This document shows, one piece after another, positions 55,023 to 64,000 of a DNA stretch of 64,000 nucleotides; the stretch's first letter is position 1; each line of letters begins with the position of its first letter. This DNA comes from Pseudomonadota bacterium. GTDB lineage: Bacteria; Pseudomonadota; Gammaproteobacteria; Burkholderiales; Casimicrobiaceae. The stretch lies in contig JBEPUI010000009.1 of the NCBI GenBank assembly GCA_041691615.1, forward strand, positions 12,888 through 76,887. Reading direction: 5' to 3'. The notes under the pieces were generated by a model that saw only the letters and a program-made list of their open reading frames with translations, was not told where the DNA came from and searched no databases. A program made the translations under genes and the position numbers.

Positions 55023-55712
55023 CTACAGCCGCAATCCGGCGTCGCGCTCGATGCTGGTCAGCGCGACTCGGTGGCGCACGTACACGGGCAGCGCGTCGCG
55101 CGCCGCGACCGCCTCACCGGCGGCCACTCGCGGCAGCGCCAGCATGCCCACCGCGCGCGCGGTCGGTCGCGCTTCGGTCGACACGCTCAACAATCCAAGT
55201 CGCGTGGCAACCTCGGGATATTGCGCGAATCCGTCGCCCGCGCCGGCCCACGCGCCCGGCGGCGCGCAGACATCGGCAGGCCTGATCACGTCGGGCGCCA
55301 GCACGGCGCTCCAGCCCTGACTCCCACGCTGGTAGGCCGCGACATAGACCTCGCGCATCCGCGCATCCAGCATCGCGAAGACGCGCTCGGTGCCATCGGC
55401 CAGCCACGACGCTTCGGCCAGCGCCTCCAGCGTGCAGACCGGAACCACCGGCAGCGACGCACCCAGCGCCAGGCCCTGCGCGACGCCGCAGGCGATGCGC
55501 ACACCGGTGAATGCACCCGGACCGGCACCGAACGCGATCGCATCGAGATCGCGCAATCGCCAGCCGGCGTCGGCGAGCGCCTCGCGGATCAGCGGCATCA
55601 CGCGCTCCGAATGTGCGTTGCTGGCGAGCTCGTCGCGCAGGTGCCACGAGCCGCCATCGCCGACGGCGACGGAGATCCACGCGGTGGATGAATCGAGTGC
55701 CAGCAGCTTCAT
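55023..55712 (-). CDS. tsaB: t6A biosynthesis protein TsaB
   Basis: [31 protein letters not shown]. Confidence 0.93.
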
Positions 55713-55786
55713 GGCGTGCATTTTACGCCAGCCCGCGTAGCGCTCGCACGGTAAAATGGCAGGCTTTCTGCAAACCCACGCCACGC

Positions 55787-57121
55787 ATGACCACCACCGT
55801 CGACATCGAATCGCTGGACCAGGAAGGACGCGGCATCGCCCGAGTCAACGGCAAAGCGGTGTTCGTCGAAGGCGCGCTTACCGGCGAACGCGCGACGATG
55901 GAAGTCTTCAACAAGCGTCCGACGTACGAGCTCGCACACGCGATGTCGATCGTCAGCGCCAACCCATCGCGCGTGTCGCCGCGCTGCCCACACTTCGGCG
56001 TGTGCGGCGGATGTACGCTGCAGCATGCCGACGGCGCGCTGCAAATGGCGGCCAAGCAGCGAGTGCTGGAGGAAGCGCTGTCGCGCATCGGCCGCGTTCG
56101 TCCGAAGACGCTTTTGCCTCCAGTGCACGGGCCGCAATGGCGATATCGCTACCGTGCGCGGCTATCGGTGCGCGACGTGCCGAAGAAAGGTGGCGTGCTA
56201 GTCGGCTTCCACGAGCGCAAGTCGAGCTTCGTCGCCGACATGCGCGAATGTCATGTGGTGCCGCTGAAGATTTCAGCGCTACTGGTGCCGCTGCGCGAAG
56301 TGATCGGCGCGTTGTCGCTGCGCAACCGGCTGCCGCAAATCGAGGTGGCGGTGGGTGAACGCGGCGGCGCACCGGTCCATGTATTGGTGCTGCGCATCCT
56401 GGACGCGCTCGAGCCCGCCGACGAAGTGCTGTTGCGCGCGTTTGCCGACACGCACGGCGTCGAACTGTGGCTGCAGACCGGCGGCCCGCAAACCGTCGTG
56501 CCTTTCCATCCCGTCAATTCGACGATCAGCTACACGCTTCCCGAGTTCGACATCGACATGCCGTTCGGCCCCGCCGAATTCACCCAAGTCAATCCGTCCA
56601 TCAACGCGGTGCTGGTGCGTCGCGCGATGGCGATGCTGAAGCCACAGCCCGGGGATCGCATTGCCGACTTTTTTTGCGGACTCGGCAATTTTTCGCTGCC
56701 GATGGCGCGACGGGGCGCGCGGGTGATCGGCATCGAGGGCAGCGCAGCAATGGTCACGCGTGCCGCGGAGAACGCCGCGCACAACGGGCTTTCCGATCTC
56801 ACTCAATTCCAACTTGCGAACCTGTTCGCGGCCACGCCCGAGAGCCTGCAGGCATTGCTGCCGTTGAGCAAGGCGCTGATCGACCCGCCGCGTGAAGGCG
56901 CGATCTCGCTCGTCAAATCGTTGCCGGGCGTCGACGATGCCAACGCGCCGACGCGCATCGTCTATGTGTCATGCAATCCTGCCACGCTGGCGCGTGACGC
57001 GGCGGTGCTGGTCAACGAGCGCGGCTATTCGCTGGAGGCCGCCGGCGTGGTCAACATGTTTCCGCACACGGCGCACGTCGAGTCGATCGCGCTGTTCGCC
57101 ACGCCCGATGTCGTCGAATGA
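55787..57121 (+). CDS. rlmD: 23S rRNA m5U1939 methyltransferase
   Basis: TRAM domain, [52 protein letters not shown]. Confidence 0.95.
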
Positions 57122-58109: not shown

Positions 58110-58199
58110 GGAGGCGTGGCCGAGCGGTCTAAGGCACGGGTCTTGAAAACCCGCGAGGGGGCAACCCCTCCGTGAGTTCGAATCTCACCGCCTCCGCCA
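58110..58199 (+). tRNA. tRNA-Ser (anticodon TGA)
   Basis: ggaggcg...cgggt-ctTGAaa-acccg, long variable arm, ttcgaat T-loop, cgcctcc-gcca; 90 nt. Confidence 0.96.
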
Positions 58200-58363: not shown

Positions 58364-58576
58364 CTAATGGTGTCGCTCATTGCTAGGCGTTGCCGGCACG
58401 TCGTGCGCGTATCGTCTATTCCACTTGTAGATCGCATATTCCGGCGACGGGTCGGACGGCCCGCGTGCACCGCATTCGGGGCACTGCACGGTATATGGCC
58501 CCTCGGAGTGCTCGCTGCCCTCCATAATTTCGCACCTCTCGTGAGTGCAATGGGGGCAGGGGCGAATGGGTTCCAT
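58364..58576 (-). CDS. Lar-family (restriction alleviation)-like zinc-ribbon protein, 70 aa
   Basis: MEPIRPCPHC...VQCPECGARGP......AIYKWNRR matches the Lar pattern PCPxC...CxxCGAxGP...AIxxWNRR. Confidence 0.65.
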   Translation of the reverse strand: MEPIRPCPHCTHERCEIMEGSEHSEGPYTVQCPECGARGPSDPSPEYAIYKWNRRYAHDVPATPSNERHH

Positions 58577-58693
58577 CGGCAAAGGATAGCGCGGCAGGAA
58601 TGGGGTGGGGTGAGCGTGTACTCGCCTGTGGCATCCGCCAAGATACTGGCGAGCTGCCATTGGCAACGTGAGACGCGTGTGCCAGAAAGCACC

Positions 58694-58733: not shown

Positions 58734-58758
58734 TGGTGGAGGTGGGCGGAATCGAACC
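58734..58758 (-). other. 25-bp tmRNA/tRNA-like 3' end fragment (candidate att site)
   Basis: Minus strand ggttcgattccgcccacctccacca: T-loop, 3' acceptor strand and CCA, with no matching 5' half upstream. Confidence 0.7.
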
Positions 58759-58890: not shown

Positions 58891-60066
58891 TCAGGCCCAC
58901 CATCGACGCCGGCGCCACAGCATTACGGCAATCGTCAGCATCGCGACGCCTATCGCCATGACCGACCCCGTTTGAAGCCACCAATGAATACCCGAATCGA
59001 TGTCGCATGAATAGGTACCTTCGTTCAAATCGTCACAAATGAGTTCCACTGCTGCGCCTTGGCTCCACGGGCCGCGGCCCGGACGCTCGATATGTGCAGT
59101 GATCGGCGGAGAAACGATATTTTCGATCGCGACATCGAGGATTGGCGAATGAAAGGCGGTAACGTGGCCCCCCACGCGCGTGGCGCGAAGCTCGCCTAAG
59201 ATTCCAAACGACGCAGCCACCGTGATTAGCACTCCAAACATCACCAATATCCGCAACAACCATTTCCATCGCTGCGAACGAGGCTGATCGTATCCGGCAA
59301 ACGGCCCCGAGGTGCCGCGCTTCGTGGCCGCCGTCGCGACGCTGCCCACGTTGTCATGGGCGCGGCCCTTCACGGGCAACGAGAACTCGGCGTAATAGTC
59401 GAGGCCGCGCAACGGCGCTCTGACTTCAAGGGACCAGCGGGCGCGGGCGCTCGAATTGGATTGGTTTGTGCCCGCGCCGGTCGCGAGTCCGTTTTCGGGG
59501 ATCACGAGCTCGATCGGAATACCTGCGCTGGAGTGCGTTGAAGCGGGTATGGTCTCGAACCCCTCCCACAGGCAGGACATTCCCGACGTCGATTTACCTC
59601 CCGTCGAGTCCGTCGTGTGCAGGTCGCAGCGCAGGCGCACTTTGAAGTCCCCGAGCGGCGACAGATCTTGACTGGTGCGAACGAGGCCCTTGAGTTTCTC
59701 GCCCAGCCGAGGTGGGCTGACCACTAGCGCCGAGCTGCCGAACTTGCGGAAGCGCAATGAGTGCACCGTTGCGCTGGCAAGCTGAACCGTGCCGAACAGT
59801 CCGGTGCATAGAACGCCGAATAGCGGCAGCGGGTTGAAGTCGCGAGCGTTGATCGCGAAGGCGGCCGGGTAGCCGACCCATAACAGATCGCCCACCACGA
59901 TGGCGATCGCCAGCGCCCAAAAGAAGAACGCGCCCTTGAACGCCTCGGGTCCAGCATCCGGCGCTTCGGCAATGATCGTGAGGGCCGACTCATTCGTCGC
60001 TGAGGTCATGTCGCAACTCGCGTTGAGAGAATGGGATGGAACATCGCCCCTGGTCGGAAGCGACAC
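58891..60066 (-). CDS. Hypothetical multi-pass membrane protein
   Basis: 391-aa ORF with two N-terminal TM segments, a soluble beta-rich region and two C-terminal TM segments; start may be the downstream ATG (MTSATNE). Confidence 0.7.
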   Translation of the reverse strand: MSLPTRGDVPSHSLNASCDMTSATNESALTIIAEAPDAGPEAFKGAFFFWALAIAIVVGDLLWVGYPAAFAINARDFNPLPLFGVLCTGLFGTVQLASATVHSLRFRKFGSSALVVSPPRLGEKLKGLVRTSQDLSPLGDFKVRLRCDLHTTDSTGGKSTSGMSCLWEGFETIPASTHSSAGIPIELVIPENGLATGAGTNQSNSSARARWSLEVRAPLRGLDYYAEFSLPVKGRAHDNVGSVATAATKRGTSGPFAGYDQPRSQRWKWLLRILVMFGVLITVAASFGILGELRATRVGGHVTAFHSPILDVAIENIVSPPITAHIERPGRGPWSQGAAVELICDDLNEGTYSCDIDSGIHWWLQTGSVMAIGVAMLTIAVMLWRRRRWWA

Positions 60067-60254
60067 CTACGCGCGGCTAACGAAGGCGGGCAAGTCAGTT
60101 AGCGACCGATAAGTGTAATCGCGAACACGACCAGCCGACACAATGAAATCGCTATAGTCGATAACAATGCAACTGATCGTGGTTCGGGACTATAGCTGCG
60201 GCTAAGAACCAGCGCCGACACTGCTGGCGTTCTAGCCGGTCCTTCGCTTTCCCT

Positions 60255-60298
60255 GCCATCGCGGCGGGATGGGTGTGGAGTTCGTAGCGGCCGCACAT
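60255..60298 (-). pseudogene. SRAP (YedK/HMCES) family 5' stump, copy 1
   Basis: MCGRYELHTHPAAMA, then loss of similarity; 43/44 nt identical to 63301-63344. Confidence 0.65.
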
Positions 60299-60353: not shown

Positions 60354-60629
60354 TCACTTTGCAGGCGAAGTGCGGCGTAGCCAAAAGATGAGCCAGCCGA
60401 CGGCGGCTCCAACGACGCCGCCACAAATACCGCCAAAGAAGATGCGCTGGCCTATGAAGTAGGCCACTAGGGCACCTATGCCGTAGCCGCCAAGAATAAA
60501 CCAAGCCACTTGACGATTCCGCGCCGTCTTGAGGGATTGCGCATCGAGTTTTCGGCGATTTTCCCTTTGCGCGACGATGCCAGGCTCAAGAATAGCGTCG
60601 CCGATCTTCTCTGCTTGTGCCTTATCCAT
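60354..60629 (-). CDS. Small hypothetical membrane protein (91 aa)
   Basis: Two C-terminal TM helices with GxxxG motifs; SD-like aggg before the ATG. Confidence 0.6.
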   Translation of the reverse strand: MDKAQAEKIGDAILEPGIVAQRENRRKLDAQSLKTARNRQVAWFILGGYGIGALVAYFIGQRIFFGGICGGVVGAAVGWLIFWLRRTSPAK

Positions 60630-60776: not shown

Positions 60777-61904
60777 TCATTGCGACAGGGCATCCATTCG
60801 TGCCTGCATCTTCGCCACGGTAGCCTCAAGCGCCGCGATGCGCGCGTCCTTATCTTGAGTCTCGCTTTCCAGCTTGGCATTCAATCCCTGGATCGCCGCG
60901 AGGGCGACACCTTCGGCGTCGATCAGCGTGATGGACTTGTCGTCGCTACCAAGACCAAAGGCCGCACGGAAGTCCTGCGAGAACGTGCCCATGTGCCGGA
61001 TCTCGGGCGACTCGTTCATGTAGCGCCAGCGCATCACGGGAAGCGCAATAGCCTTGGCTAGCACGTCTTGCGGATCGATGGCGGAAAAGTCGCGTTTAAC
61101 ATCGCGTGAGCTGCTGCAGGCCCAGCTACCGCCGCCGCCCGCAAGCGAACAGCCGACCGTGCCCGACTTGTCGGACAGCATGCGAATGCCGCCGCTGGCG
61201 GCAACGATGAATTCATTGGCGGTGCCGCTAGTAACGTCCAACTGCGTGGAGTCAGCGAAAACGAACGAGCCCGTGGCCGCCGCCGCGGTCCTCGCGCGAA
61301 ACCCGAGCGCGTACGAATAGGCGCCAGCGGCGAAGTTTTCCTCACCGCCGAGTGCCACCGACCCAAACCCGCTCGCTGTATTTACGTCTCCGCCGATCAC
61401 CACCGATTTGTCGCCGCTAGCGACGTTCGAGTCGCCGCCATCGACTGCAGACGCAGTGCCGCTCGCGGTGTTGAATTGCCCACCCGTGACGCTCGAAAGA
61501 TAAGCTGCGCTGTTACCGCTACCGCCGCCGACAAAGGCATAGCCGCCGCTCGCCATGTTACCCAAACCACCGACGATCGCATTGTGGTCGAAGGCCCCGA
61601 CGCCGGTTGTGTTGTTCTCGCCGCTGCCAATGAAATTGGTAAACGTCCCAAGCGAATTGGAGCCGTTTCCGCGTCCCATGCGTTGCAGAAACAGTGCCAT
61701 CTGCAGGCGTGTCACGTAGTCGTTGGGGCAATAGGTCGTTCCAGTGCACCCCAACGTGATCCCTTTATCCTTCAGATAGGTAACAGCAGAGCAATAGGTC
61801 GTATTGGCATTGTCGACATCGGTGAACCCGTCGCAGGACGCAGCGTGAGCGCCATAGGTCAACACGCTGGCGCAGATTCCGACTAAGGTGGACACGATTC
61901 GCAT
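60777..61904 (-). CDS. Exported fibre/adhesin-like protein 1: signal peptide + SLH-like domain + GGxxN repeat head + peptidase S74 chaperone
   Basis: FTDV...KGITLGC...YCPNDYVTRLQMALFLQR; roughly 14-aa VxGGxxNxAxG repeats; SSRDVKRDF...ITLIDAEGVALAAIQGL followed by a coiled coil; SD ggag. Confidence 0.82.
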   Translation of the reverse strand: MRIVSTLVGICASVLTYGAHAASCDGFTDVDNANTTYCSAVTYLKDKGITLGCTGTTYCPNDYVTRLQMALFLQRMGRGNGSNSLGTFTNFIGSGENNTTGVGAFDHNAIVGGLGNMASGGYAFVGGGSGNSAAYLSSVTGGQFNTASGTASAVDGGDSNVASGDKSVVIGGDVNTASGFGSVALGGEENFAAGAYSYALGFRARTAAAATGSFVFADSTQLDVTSGTANEFIVAASGGIRMLSDKSGTVGCSLAGGGGSWACSSSRDVKRDFSAIDPQDVLAKAIALPVMRWRYMNESPEIRHMGTFSQDFRAAFGLGSDDKSITLIDAEGVALAAIQGLNAKLESETQDKDARIAALEATVAKMQARMDALSQ

Positions 61905-61940
61905 GGGTGTTCTCCAGTTGGGCATTAAGTGTGGCGGCAG

Positions 61941-62954
61941 TTAGCGCGGCAGCGCGGATTCGAGCTTGGCCAGCCGCTGCTCCAAGGCATCGATCCGTGA
62001 ATCCTTTGCGCGGTTTTCGCTCTCTAACTTAGCGTTGAGACCTTGGATCGCCGCCAGGGCGACACCGGTTTCATCGATGCTGGTGATGGACTTGTCGTCG
62101 CTGCCCAGCAGAAACGCAGAATGAAAGTCCTGCGACACCGGGCCGAGATGGCGGCTTTGCGCGCCTTCGGTGATGTAGTTCCAAGTCGTGATCGGCATAG
62201 CGCTCACCTTGGCGAGTACGTCGCGCGGATCGATGGCACGGAAGTTCTCTTTAACGGCGCGATCGCTGGTTGCTGACCAGGCCCCGCTGCCCGCAACGAC
62301 ATAGGGTCCCGTCGCCGGTTGGCCGGATGCCACGCCGGTGACGAACCAAACACCGCCGGTCGCGCGCACGTTGAAGGTATTCCTGGCGTCGGCCCATCCG
62401 GGCGTGGACCCGGCAGCGGAAGGTTCGAACACCTCCCCGATGTCATCGGCCCACACGAACTCGCCATCCGCAACGGCGTTCGCATCATGGCCTGCCGCGA
62501 AGCTGAAGAAACCACTGGCGGCGTTGCTGGTGCCCCCGCTGACCGTGCTTCCGTAGCCATCGGCGATGTTGCTGCTGCCCCCGCTGACCGTGCTTCCGAT
62601 GCCACCGGCGATGTTGTAAGCTCCCCCGCCGACGGTGCTATAGCCCCCCGTGCTGGTATTGTGGTCACCGCCGCCGATTGTCGTGGTGGAGTCCCCCAGC
62701 ACGTTGTTCGGACCTCCGCGACCCGCGCGCTGCAGGAACAACGCCATCTGTAGCCGTGTCACATAGTCGTTGGGGCAGTAGTTGCTGCCGTCACCGCATC
62801 CCAGCGTGATCCCCTTGTCCTTCAGATAGGTCACTGCAGAGCAGTAAGTAGTGTTGGCACTGTCGACATCGGTGAACCCGGCACAGGCTGCTGCATATGC
62901 AGGCGCGCTGGAGACCGTTGCAATCGCAACTGCGAGAATGAATAGGAGGCGCAT
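61941..62954 (-). CDS. Exported fibre/adhesin-like protein 2 (same architecture)
   Basis: MRLLFILAVA signal, near-identical SLH block, GG repeats, SDRAVKENF...GVALAAIQGL. Confidence 0.82.
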   Translation of the reverse strand: MRLLFILAVAIATVSSAPAYAAACAGFTDVDSANTTYCSAVTYLKDKGITLGCGDGSNYCPNDYVTRLQMALFLQRAGRGGPNNVLGDSTTTIGGGDHNTSTGGYSTVGGGAYNIAGGIGSTVSGGSSNIADGYGSTVSGGTSNAASGFFSFAAGHDANAVADGEFVWADDIGEVFEPSAAGSTPGWADARNTFNVRATGGVWFVTGVASGQPATGPYVVAGSGAWSATSDRAVKENFRAIDPRDVLAKVSAMPITTWNYITEGAQSRHLGPVSQDFHSAFLLGSDDKSITSIDETGVALAAIQGLNAKLESENRAKDSRIDALEQRLAKLESALPR

Positions 62955-63233
62955 GAGTATTTCCCTGTAGGACGCCCGAACGGGCTGGGAAACAGTCTGC
63001 GCGCGGCTGGCGAACCGGCGCAAGCCTCCGGTGCAGGGGCAGCCGTACCCTAGCGGGCTTGGCCATTCATGATGGGCATCATCGCTTTCCACCGCATAGT
63101 CCCGCTCCCGAATCGGAGCTGCAGGTTGTCGTCCGACCGAAAAATTGATGCGCTGTTGCCGACTTCCGCCGCCTTGCCATCCGGCTGCAGCGTTTCCTCG
63201 AGCCGGCGCCAGTCGAGAGCGGACGACTGGCCG

Positions 63234-63344
63234 CTACTGCGACCGCGCGACGTTGTAGCGCGGCGTCACGTCGGCGGGAGTCGGAATACCGCGGGCGAGC
63301 GCCATCGCGGCTGGATGGGTGTGGAGTTCGTAGCGGCCGCACAT
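63234..63344 (-). pseudogene. SRAP (YedK/HMCES) family 5' fragment, copy 2
   Basis: MCGRYELHTHPAAMALARGIPTPADVTPRYNVARSQ followed by TAG; PRYNVA is the typical SRAP motif. Confidence 0.72.
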
Positions 63345-63354
63345 GTCTGTGCCG

Positions 63355-64000
63355 TTAGCGTGTCAACATAGCAATTTGCTTTTGCATTTGAGCCATCGCC
63401 TCCTCCAGCGCGGCTATGCGCGCATCCTTTTTCTGCAACTGGCCGTCCAGCTTGGCGTTCAGGCCCTGGATCGCGGCCAGCGCCACACCTTCGGCGTCGA
63501 TCAGCGTGATGGACTTGTCGTCGCTACCAAGACCAAAGGCCGCACGGAATTCCTGCGAGAACGTTCCCATGTGTCGGATCTCCGGCGATTCGTGCATGTA
63601 GCGCCAGCGCATCACGGGCAGCGCCAGCGCGCGGGCGAGCACATCCTCGGTATCAATCGGGGAGAAATCGCGCTTCACATCACGCGAGCTGGTGCAGGCC
63701 CAGCTGCCGCCGCCGGCCACGATGGAACAACCGGTCGAGCCGTCCTTGTTGGACAGCATGCGGATCCCGCCGCTCGCCCCCACCAGGAATTCGTTGGGGA
63801 TAGCGGTACTGATGTCGATCTCCGTGTTGTCGCCGAATACAAATGAACCGAATGCCGTCGCTTCCGTTTTTGCTCGGTAGCCAAGCGCAACCGAACGCCC
63901 ACCTGCCGCGGTGTTGTTCGCGCCGCCAGGTACCGTTGAATTGTCGCCGCTGGCGGAATTGAAAAAACCTCCGCCAACCGACGCATACATGCCCGTAGCC
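63355..64000 (-). CDS. Fibre/adhesin-like protein 3 (C-terminal part; 5' end outside the window)
   Basis: GGxxN repeats, SFVFGD..NEFLVGASGGIRM, SSRDVKRDF S74 domain and coiled coil. Confidence 0.8.
   Translation of the reverse strand, partial: ATGMYASVGGGFFNSASGDNSTVPGGANNTAAGGRSVALGYRAKTEATAFGSFVFGDNTEIDISTAIPNEFLVGASGGIRMLSNKDGSTGCSIVAGGGSWACTSSRDVKRDFSPIDTEDVLARALALPVMRWRYMHESPEIRHMGTFSQEFRAAFGLGSDDKSITLIDAEGVALAAIQGLNAKLDGQLQKKDARIAALEEAMAQMQKQIAMLTR

Follow-up and report, generated by a model that had tools for sequence, protein, structure and literature searches.

Introduction

Several described systems share parts of their design with the proteins considered here, which are encoded by a tandem array of three paralogous genes (fibres A, B and C) at one end of a 64,000-nucleotide stretch of DNA, the window, from a betaproteobacterium of the family Casimicrobiaceae (GenBank assembly GCA_041691615.1). 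Each protein joins an N-terminal S-layer homology (SLH) domain to a beta-roll head and a C-terminal Peptidase_S74 (S74) domain. In overall plan they resemble the mosaic adhesive trimeric (MAT) fibres of Bdellovibrio bacteriovorus (Caulton et al. 2024, PMC10769870). MAT fibres are found at the cell surface, where a conserved domain that follows the signal peptide is presumed by those authors to be the anchor, and the fibre Bd3182 cleaves itself at its S74 serine, as an S782A mutant does not (PMC10769870). The likeness extends to chromosomal non-phage genes, a signal peptide, a family-wide N-terminal domain and a multi-copy, mosaic family, with 21 members in Bdellovibrio and eight here. Fibres of the S74 subgroup also have a trimeric body, as predicted for the present proteins, and a C-terminal S74 chaperone-protease (MAT motif S-D-x3-K). 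However, the MAT N-terminal domain is about 130 residues long, beta-rich and without a relative in the Protein Data Bank (PDB), whereas that of the present proteins is a 56-residue helix-loop-helix SLH domain with four cysteines. MAT bodies are long triple beta-helices (about 55 nm), whereas those here are UspA1-type beta-roll stubs of about 240 residues, and Bdellovibrio is a predator whereas the present host is not known to be one. These likenesses and differences are drawn from the published description and not from direct sequence comparison. Because the N-terminal domain differs, we do not regard the fibres as members of the MAT family.

Trimers with one SLH domain per chain are known from OmpM and from the trimeric autotransporter adhesins of Veillonella, such as VtaG (10.64898/2026.01.22.700529; 10.1101/2021.05.31.446380). 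In the OmpM/SlpA/Omp-alpha tethers the single SLH domain is N-terminal and precedes a trimeric stalk, an order shared with the fibres. The Veillonella adhesins share with them the combination of trimeric-autotransporter heads and SLH, but there the SLH domain is C-terminal and periplasmic. Both groups, which occur only in Terrabacteria, possess an outer-membrane beta-barrel, whereas the fibres lack one, belong to a betaproteobacterium and have their trimerisation assigned here to a removable S74 domain.

The heads recall UspA1 of Moraxella (PDB 3pr7, 3ntn), YadA of Yersinia and CbpF of Fusobacterium, in that 15-residue GGxxNxAxG repeats match the UspA1 head. Unlike those adhesins, the fibres lack a YadA_anchor barrel, a neck, a stalk and the type Vc mode of secretion, and their polarity is inverted relative to trimeric autotransporters, with the anchor N-terminal and the free tip C-terminal. 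The S74 domain shares its Pfam family, Ser-x4-Lys pattern, terminal position and helical tail with phage proteins (K1F endosialidase, 3gw6; the T5 L-shaped fibre) and with the eukaryotic MyRF ICA domain (7dc3). In contrast to the phage proteins, the present ones are cell-encoded, carry a Sec signal and fuse S74 to a beta-roll head in place of a triple beta-helix.

Gram-positive SLH/CsaB systems, such as those of Bacillus anthracis Sap and Paenibacillus alvei SpaA (PMC6081394), have in common with the fibres the glycine of GIIxG and the TRAE-type arginine, and in both cases a pyruvyl transferase and a UDP-GlcNAc 2-epimerase are encoded beside SLH proteins in the genome. They differ in having three tandem SLH domains, against one per chain here with Trp13 replaced by cysteine and two extra cysteine pairs. 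The present host, moreover, is a diderm without an LCP ligase, with a Wzm/Wzt exporter of O-polysaccharide or capsule type. A survey of 1,093 genomes found SLH/CsaB to be 'practically absent' in Gracilicutes (10.1101/2021.05.31.446380).

Three tandem fibre genes

The window corresponds to C9:12888-76887 of a 206-contig, 3.79-Mb assembly (C numbers denote contigs of this genome), and the contig extends 7.1 kb past it (fetched as L001). On the minus strand, 60777-64000 holds the whole of fibre genes A and B but only the 3' portion of fibre gene C. A first-pass annotation, made from the letters of the DNA alone, had described three co-oriented paralogs here, and the listing of open reading frames (ORFs) bears this out. 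Coordinates within the genes, checked by translation, are as follows.

60777-61904, minus strand: fibre A gene, 375 residues from the likely start Met8 at 61904 (MRIVST) of the ORF 60777-61925
61842-61904, minus strand: fibre A signal peptide
61674-61841, minus strand: fibre A SLH domain (Pfam)
about 61113-61673, minus strand: fibre A linker and 15-residue head repeats (repeat analysis)
61110-61112, minus strand: fibre A predicted S74 nucleophile Ser265 (Pfam, alignment)
60780-61112, minus strand: fibre A predicted released chaperone and helix (Pfam, AlphaFold2 model)
61941-62954, minus strand: fibre B gene, 337 residues from MRLLFIL, same plan as A with the shortest head
62265-62267, minus strand: fibre B S74 Ser230
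63355-64000, minus strand: C-terminal 214 residues of fibre C; the whole gene is L001 6243-7502, 419 residues
63688-63690, minus strand: fibre C S74 Ser309

A longer ORF for fibre B (61941-63092, 383 residues from a GTG start) is probably over-extended; the starts MRIVST and MRLLFIL agree with protein-database gene calls. Only 36 nt separate B from A, the gene downstream of it, so co-transcription of this pair is probable. A promoter and terminator scan of 60-64 kb gave no signal exceeding shuffled expectation. The signal peptide and SLH domain of A and B recur in full-length fibre C.

A derived SLH domain at the N-terminus

The first-pass annotation had read each complete protein as a Sec signal, a four-cysteine SLH-like domain and an S74 domain with SSRDVK or SDRAVK, and all of these are present by Pfam, alignment and translation. 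Scored against Pfam SLH (PF00395, cut-off 20.8 bits), fibre A reached 22.8 bits in hmmscan, above the cut-off, and B and C fell just under it (19.7 and 19.4); in a six-frame search of the genome all three exceeded it (26.4, 23.1 and 23.4 bits for A, B and C). A family profile built from 32 homologues matched, among PDB sequences, the SLH domains of SbsB (4aq1, E 1e-6) and Sap (3pyw, E 0.035), and with a profile of 88 sequences the N-terminal domain aligns with each of the three SbsB SLH repeats. The four cysteines and the motif C-x-G-F-x-D-V...G-I-T-L-G-C...Y-C-P...T-R-L-Q were confirmed in the fibres, and the four-cysteine pattern recurs in 81 of the 88 aligned homologues. Ligand contacts of SLH have been defined in SpaA at Gly29, Arg43 and Trp13 (PMC6081394); the corresponding glycine (G52, in GITLG) and arginine (R66, in TRLQ) are invariant in all 88.

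The same genome encodes a metalloprotease whose C-terminal region is a canonical triple SLH array (SLH E 4e-11) that keeps the HWA and TRAE motifs and retains the tryptophan in two of its three repeats. The fibre A N-terminal domain matches these three repeats by BLASTP with E 8e-13, 5e-10 and 4e-5. The metalloprotease array also contains the G-C...[FY]-C-P loop, and this cysteine pair is therefore a lineage trait of SLH domains here. An AlphaFold2 model of the isolated N-terminal domain (pLDDT 74.7) predicts a strand, a helix, a long loop and a helix, in the expected order. We regard the sequence evidence for assigning the domain to SLH as strong.

A UspA1-type head and an S74 chaperone

The head is built of 5-9 repeats with a period of 15 residues. 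The GGxxNxAxG repeats and the YadA-type head proposed at first pass are present, but the period given there, about 14, has to be corrected, and UspA1 is a much better match than generic YadA: the family profile hits the UspA1 head (3pr7) with E 6e-36 (E 3e-36 with a larger alignment). Pfam scans of all three fibres gave no match to the YadA_anchor barrel at E <= 1, as the earlier reading of a protein without an autotransporter barrel implied; the C-terminus holds S74 and a helix in its place. An ice-binding beta-roll was considered and set aside, as LbR_Ice_bind scored 19.9 bits against a cut-off of 30 and UspA1 is far stronger; a fold match to a ryegrass ice-binding protein was discounted as reflecting only a generic beta-roll.

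All three fibres exceed the Peptidase_S74 gathering score (PF13884, 22 bits), with 23.9 bits for A, 39.4 for B and 30.2 for C (28.5 for full-length C), and eight copies of the domain were found in the genome. The Ser-x4-Lys dyad takes the form SSRDVK or SDRAVK, and Ser265, Arg267 and Lys270 (fibre A numbering) are invariant in all 88 homologues. The family profile matches the MyRF ICA domain (7dc3, E 0.009) and also a phage depolymerase tailspike. In an AlphaFold2 monomer model of fibre A, based on the 88 aligned sequences (mean pLDDT 87.6), a long helix is predicted at residues 327-374 (pLDDT >95), where the first-pass annotation had placed a coiled coil. A Foldseek search with this full-length model is dominated by the head and S74, and returned the heads of UspA1, CbpF and EibD, MyRF ICA 7dc3 (probability 1.00, target-normalised TM-score about 0.5) and, weakly, the endoNF CIMCD domain 3gw6.

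Export and a proposed route of assembly

Signal peptides were assessed heuristically in the 88 aligned homologues. A hydrophobic core is present in every one and a positively charged N-region in 87, and all have a small-x-small signal-peptidase I site 1-2 residues ahead of the first cysteine. The number of cysteines is even in most mature chains, which fits an oxidising compartment. Anchoring as a lipoprotein was rejected: the first cysteine is often preceded by proline, asparagine or isoleucine, which makes no lipobox, and the site is that of signal peptidase I. GspL, a component of type II secretion, is encoded in the genome.

We favour, with moderate confidence, the explanation that these are the cell's own trimeric fibres, assembled and then trimmed by S74, held through SLH on a glycopolymer belonging to the producer's envelope and bearing an adhesive head. 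Sec would export each chain, the signal peptide being cut 1-2 residues ahead of the first cysteine, and the cysteines would form disulfides outside the cytoplasm. The C-terminal S74 domain, acting as an intramolecular chaperone, would put three chains in register, so that three UspA1/YadA-type beta-roll heads could pack into a short trimeric stub of about 5-9 turns. The chaperone would then cut itself off at Ser265 by means of Lys270 (fibre A), releasing a fragment of 107-122 residues and exposing the distal tip. Trimerisation would also join three single SLH modules into the three-fold unit that such domains require, able to hold the fibre on its glycopolymer, most likely a pyruvylated polysaccharide containing N-acetylmannosamine (ManNAc), for which the gene cluster described below is a candidate source. 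The head may serve as an adhesin in attachment to cells, particles or flocs, the eight mosaic paralogs offering different tips. Judged by analogy, every step of this route has a characterised precedent.

A candidate anchor polysaccharide and the place of the fibres

Contig C8 carries a cluster (C8:67571-86363) in which two metalloproteases with C-terminal triple SLH arrays and one single-SLH protein lie within 20 kb. It also encodes a UDP-GlcNAc 2-epimerase (E 2e-108), GT4 glycosyltransferases, a methyltransferase, a 1279-residue multi-domain glycosyltransferase, a Wzt/Wzm ABC exporter and the only PS_pyruv_trans gene of the genome (PF04230, E 2e-25). The csaB-like partner that the first-pass annotation had advised looking for to the right of the window thus exists, on another contig and beside multi-SLH genes. 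The pyruvyl transferase gene lies 8-12 kb from the triple-SLH genes and adjoins that of the epimerase, which would be a source of ManNAc. The core of the cluster (pyruvyl transferase, epimerase and SLH proteins) recurs in the related genome G257 and in the more distant G259 (L092; L093). Of eight SLH-bearing genomes, six have a pyruvyl transferase gene, and in each of the six it stands 8-25 kb from multi-SLH genes. Within the genus, the pyruvyl transferase is present in this genome and in G211, the two that are rich in the fibre/SLH-like N-domain family, and in one of the eight others.

Several observations weigh against the favoured explanation. They carry a Sec signal only, and no route across the outer membrane is encoded adjacent to them. 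The Trp13 position of SLH, a ligand contact in SpaA, is an invariant cysteine (C38) in the fibre N-terminal domain; with two of the three ligand positions kept and Trp13 replaced, we class the domain as a derived form of SLH that is rich in disulfides. Foldseek found no structural neighbour in the PDB for the isolated N-domain model at its pLDDT of 74.7, which is unsurprising because a 56-residue module of this kind would become compact only as a trimer. No match to PF04230 was found in the SLH-bearing family genomes G208 and G225 (the latter only 78% complete), and a pyruvylated ligand is therefore not universal. A search for LCP ligase was negative in six betaproteobacterial genomes that bear SLH and positive in every control genome that uses SLH, so the classic route to a peptidoglycan-linked polymer is missing. 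Among public sequencing runs the sequence occurs in one DNA run only, a freshwater sediment metagenome, and in no RNA run. Finally, the genome is a metagenome-assembled genome (MAG) with 3.6% estimated contamination; countering this concern, the fibre family is spread over five contigs and SLH hits over twelve.

Some of these points would suit trimers that stay in the periplasm, an explanation that we consider unlikely, though it is the one that best survives among the alternatives. The SLH unit would then bind peptidoglycan or an associated polymer, as in the OmpM/SlpA tethers, and the stubs would be struts or binding modules. The limited export equipment (a Sec signal, with no barrel, lipobox or adjacent secretion genes) would fit such proteins, the mature chain is short (about 243 residues in fibre A after predicted cleavage), and SLH is periplasmic in all characterised diderms (10.1101/2021.05.31.446380). 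Against it, heads of the trimeric-autotransporter type are extracellular adhesin modules, and the other SLH proteins of the genome are secreted-type metalloproteases and a 1644-residue protein that is protease-like by eye only. The clustering of the pyruvyl transferase with a Wzm/Wzt exporter, the lack of an LCP ligase that would join a polymer to peptidoglycan and the presence of a type II secretion component also count against it. From the missing ligase, the exporter and the secretion component together, we infer that the balance leans towards a ligand on lipopolysaccharide or capsule and away from peptidoglycan.

Less probable still, in our judgement, are fibres that leave the cell altogether, with the disulfide-locked SLH-like module serving as a lectin or sorting tag for pyruvylated or different glycans of foreign cells or of the matrix, and the fibres acting as soluble cross-linkers of flocs or biofilms. 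The exchange of the ligand-site Trp13 for cysteine and the extra disulfides, which mark a derived SLH subtype, would be in keeping with such a change of ligand, as would the two genomes that have the module and no PS_pyruv_trans and the occurrence of the same N-module ahead of many unrelated passenger domains. The tight linkage of the pyruvyl-transferase cluster with SLH genes in six genomes, and the genus-level co-occurrence of the N-domain family with the pyruvyl transferase (two of two rich genomes, one of eight others), argue against this reading. The GC...CP loop is moreover found in canonical triple-SLH proteins of the same genome.

Returning to fibres held on the cell's own envelope, a broader interpretation can be put forward tentatively, as something we hold possible rather than likely. 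An SLH/CsaB-type display system, regarded as practically limited to Terrabacteria, may have been acquired by a lineage of Casimicrobiaceae and related uncultured Betaproteobacteria, and it may act outside a classical outer membrane. Its ligand might then be an O-polysaccharide or capsule that is pyruvylated and contains ManNAc, is exported through Wzm/Wzt and has no link to peptidoglycan. The disulfide-locked single SLH domain could be a general display tag carried by dozens of different cargoes, with the S74 fibres as one cargo that brings its own removable trimerisation device.

Carriage on a tRNA island

The fibre genes stand to the right of a tRNA-Ser gene whose last 14 nt (CACCGCCTCCGCCA) form the left copy of a direct repeat. 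A second, exact copy of these 14 nt lies at L001 13943-13956, some 95 nt past the start of an integrase gene. GC content is 0.59-0.63 in the island and 0.63-0.69 upstream. Given the tRNA repeat and the lower GC, the fibres are therefore cargo of an integrative tRNA-Ser island of about 12.9 kb, as the first-pass annotation had surmised in placing them on an island. Past the window, the right flank encodes two hypothetical proteins, a 605-residue primase-helicase (AAA_25; phrog_239, E 3e-29) and a CHC2 zinc-ribbon protein, and further on two more hypothetical proteins and a P4-type tyrosine integrase (Arm-DNA-bind_3, Phage_int_M, Phage_integrase). When every gene of the island was scanned against Pfam and PHROG, none proved to encode a capsid, terminase, tail or baseplate protein. 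The earlier statement that no phage structural genes are nearby accordingly stands, with the qualification that the flank does hold an integrase and a primase-helicase.

The fibre family extends well past this island. Five more full-length paralogs occur in the genome (two on C46 and one each on C16, C25 and C53), among ordinary genes and outside islands, and a related assembly has four fibre copies whose neighbours are PEP-CTERM, Calx-beta, BTAD and GGDEF genes. When 50,697 phage records were searched by tblastn, two matched, both from one phage, and these cover 80 residues of S74 only at a best identity of 39.5%, and IMG/VR yielded no contig with a relative that bears the N-terminal domain. 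The claim of a non-phage, exported family is supported by these ordinary contexts, by the near absence of matches in phage databases and by signal features in all 88 homologues. A prophage tail module was rejected, as the island scans gave only the integrase, the primase-helicase, the CHC2 zinc ribbon and a Lar-like protein.

The least probable explanation, which we judge highly improbable, casts the fibres as receptor-binding proteins belonging to a phage or satellite, and the island as a P4-like satellite that equips a helper phage with alternative tail fibres. The insertion of the island at a tRNA gene, its P4-type integrase and its primase-helicase would all suit this, as would an S74 domain that is a hallmark of phage fibres, a weak PHROG tail-fibre match (phrog_1980, E 5e-5) and mosaic, cassette-like paralogs. 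The prophage reading nevertheless fails because paralogs sit in ordinary contexts (five of the eight outside any island), relatives have signal peptides (88 of 88, with four cysteines in 81) and the family is almost missing from phage collections, while the island has no virion genes and an SLH anchor would be pointless on a virion.

The remaining features of the island and its surroundings are listed below.

58110-58199, plus strand: tRNA-Ser(TGA) (ARAGORN), with the left repeat copy at 58186-58199
58364-58666, minus strand: Lar-like restriction-alleviation zinc-ribbon protein, 100 residues (phrog_599, E 4.8e-12), island cargo
58734-58753, minus strand: exact copy of the last 20 nt of transfer-messenger RNA (tmRNA, ssrA), followed by a hairpin and a T-run; matches C14:20101-20120
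58891-60066, minus strand: 391-residue hypothetical membrane protein of no known family (ORF)
60254-60298, minus strand: first remnant of an SRAP (YedK-like) gene start, first 15 codons, MCGRYELHTHPAAMA (44-nt repeat D7, translation)
60354-60629, minus strand: 91-residue small membrane protein downstream of fibre A (phrog_594, function unknown, E 1e-4)
63300-63344, minus strand: second SRAP gene-start remnant, directly after fibre C (repeat D7, 98% identical; translation, tblastn)

The Lar-like gene sits between the tRNA-Ser gene and the ssrA fragment, and anti-restriction cargo of this kind is typical of mobile elements. The sequence matched by the fragment, C14:20101-20120, is the 3' end of the only tmRNA gene of the genome (C14:19755-20120). 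Within 700 nt after this real ssrA, at C14:20777-20905, lies what is left of a fibre C-terminal coil. The copy and the coil remnant suggest that the fibre-bearing element was formerly at ssrA or recombined with an ssrA island, and that the present island is mosaic or re-targeted.

For the 391-residue membrane protein, Pfam and PHROG scans gave no match and no paralog was found in the genome or in the fetched loci. The 91-residue protein is 100% identical in a related assembly (L002), where it again follows a fibre gene. Intact SRAP genes come after fibre paralogs at C46:25420-26124, directly, and at C25:13430-14068. A unit of fibre plus SRAP start seems to have been copied, a pairing seen only in this genome and its closest relative. 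No conserved partner gene was found beside the fibres, the 91-residue protein and the SRAP remnant recurring only in that closest relative. Elsewhere in the window, ARAGORN calls a tRNA-Gly(GCC) at 56444-56516 on the minus strand, within and antisense to a long ORF (55511-57121). By eye we take this ORF to resemble a 23S rRNA methyltransferase, and the tRNA call is probably false.

A mosaic family of patchy distribution

Identity among the paralogs varies by module, at 60-88% for N-terminal domains, 39-58% for heads and 41-79% for S74 regions, and fibre A is closest to B at its N-terminus (88%) and to C at its C-terminus (79%). In L002, 560 nt spanning a fibre 3' end, the 91-residue gene and the SRAP remnant match the window at 97% identity. 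Identity drops to 70-88% in the fibre bodies of that assembly, where one copy combines a B-like 5' end with a C-like 3' end. The module-wise identities and this hybrid copy support recombination between paralogs.

The best named relatives belong to Casimicrobiaceae and to MAGs labelled 'uncultured beta proteobacterium'. Distribution is patchy: the fibre is carried by 22 of 61 genomes of the family and by two of nine other genomes of the genus. SLH was found in two of 201 genomes sampled across the order, in keeping with the earlier remark that it is unexpected in this group. Where SLH does occur it is expanded, with 18 hits in this genome and from 5 to 51 in five named MAGs. Among eight related genomes tested, five have 8-11 S74 genes each and three have 2-3. 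In another genome of the bacterial family, G202:C60:100301-126190 encodes about ten proteins in tandem (635-948 residues) that end in S74 but lack the SLH N-terminal domain.

The SLH module also precedes other kinds of protein. In a second family, a four-cysteine single-SLH module is followed by a domain of about 150 residues of unknown family, with an end of the form ...NRNG(T/S)SxPF in most copies. Its copies in this genome are as follows.

C8:71048-71749: second SLH family
C44:14047-14718: second SLH family
C45:24835-25545: second SLH family
C47:7114-7884: second SLH family
C1:88591-89421: second SLH family

The same SLH-plus-tail cassette also ends a 1644-residue multi-domain protein (C44:9048-13982), protease-like by eye. 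The 4.3-Mb genome G259 (uncultured beta proteobacterium MFD05705.bin.2.149) gives 51 SLH hits, most of them within ORFs of 400-490 residues, against only 11 S74 domains. The single-SLH tag therefore fronts many other types of cargo there.

The combination of head and S74 is far more widespread. In public data it accounts for 115,714 representative clusters with a threshold of E <= 1e-3, and for 17,789 with E <= 1e-30. It mostly closes proteins of 450-3,800 residues and spans many phyla, archaea among them. These proteins are annotated only as 'tail fiber domain-containing protein'.

Implications

The first-pass annotation had suggested an undescribed system. In part this does not hold, since MAT fibres (PMC10769870), single-SLH trimers and the head-plus-S74 module of about 115,000 clusters are known; what does appear to be new is the subfamily fronted by SLH and, for a proteobacterium, its SLH/pyruvyl-transferase setting. 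Among the papers listed by a first literature search, none mentioned both S74 and S-layer homology, and one automatic JGI annotation lists both domains on a homologue.

Fibres owned by cells and built by S74 were first characterised in 2024, in one predator, and the same assembly logic is met here with an SLH anchor and a trimeric-autotransporter head, both of them unlike their counterparts there and both well understood. With this locus one could test directly if three single SLH modules, joined by a removable chaperone, make a functional unit for binding wall polymer. The small size of the mature fibres (about 240 residues) should make expression and crystallisation easy. Given that the head-plus-S74 module is both very common and poorly annotated, a function assigned here would transfer widely.

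For the biology of these bacteria, the findings point to an SLH and pyruvyl-transferase system within Gracilicutes. If its ligand is indeed an outer-membrane polysaccharide, this would be a new mode of protein display in Gram-negative bacteria.

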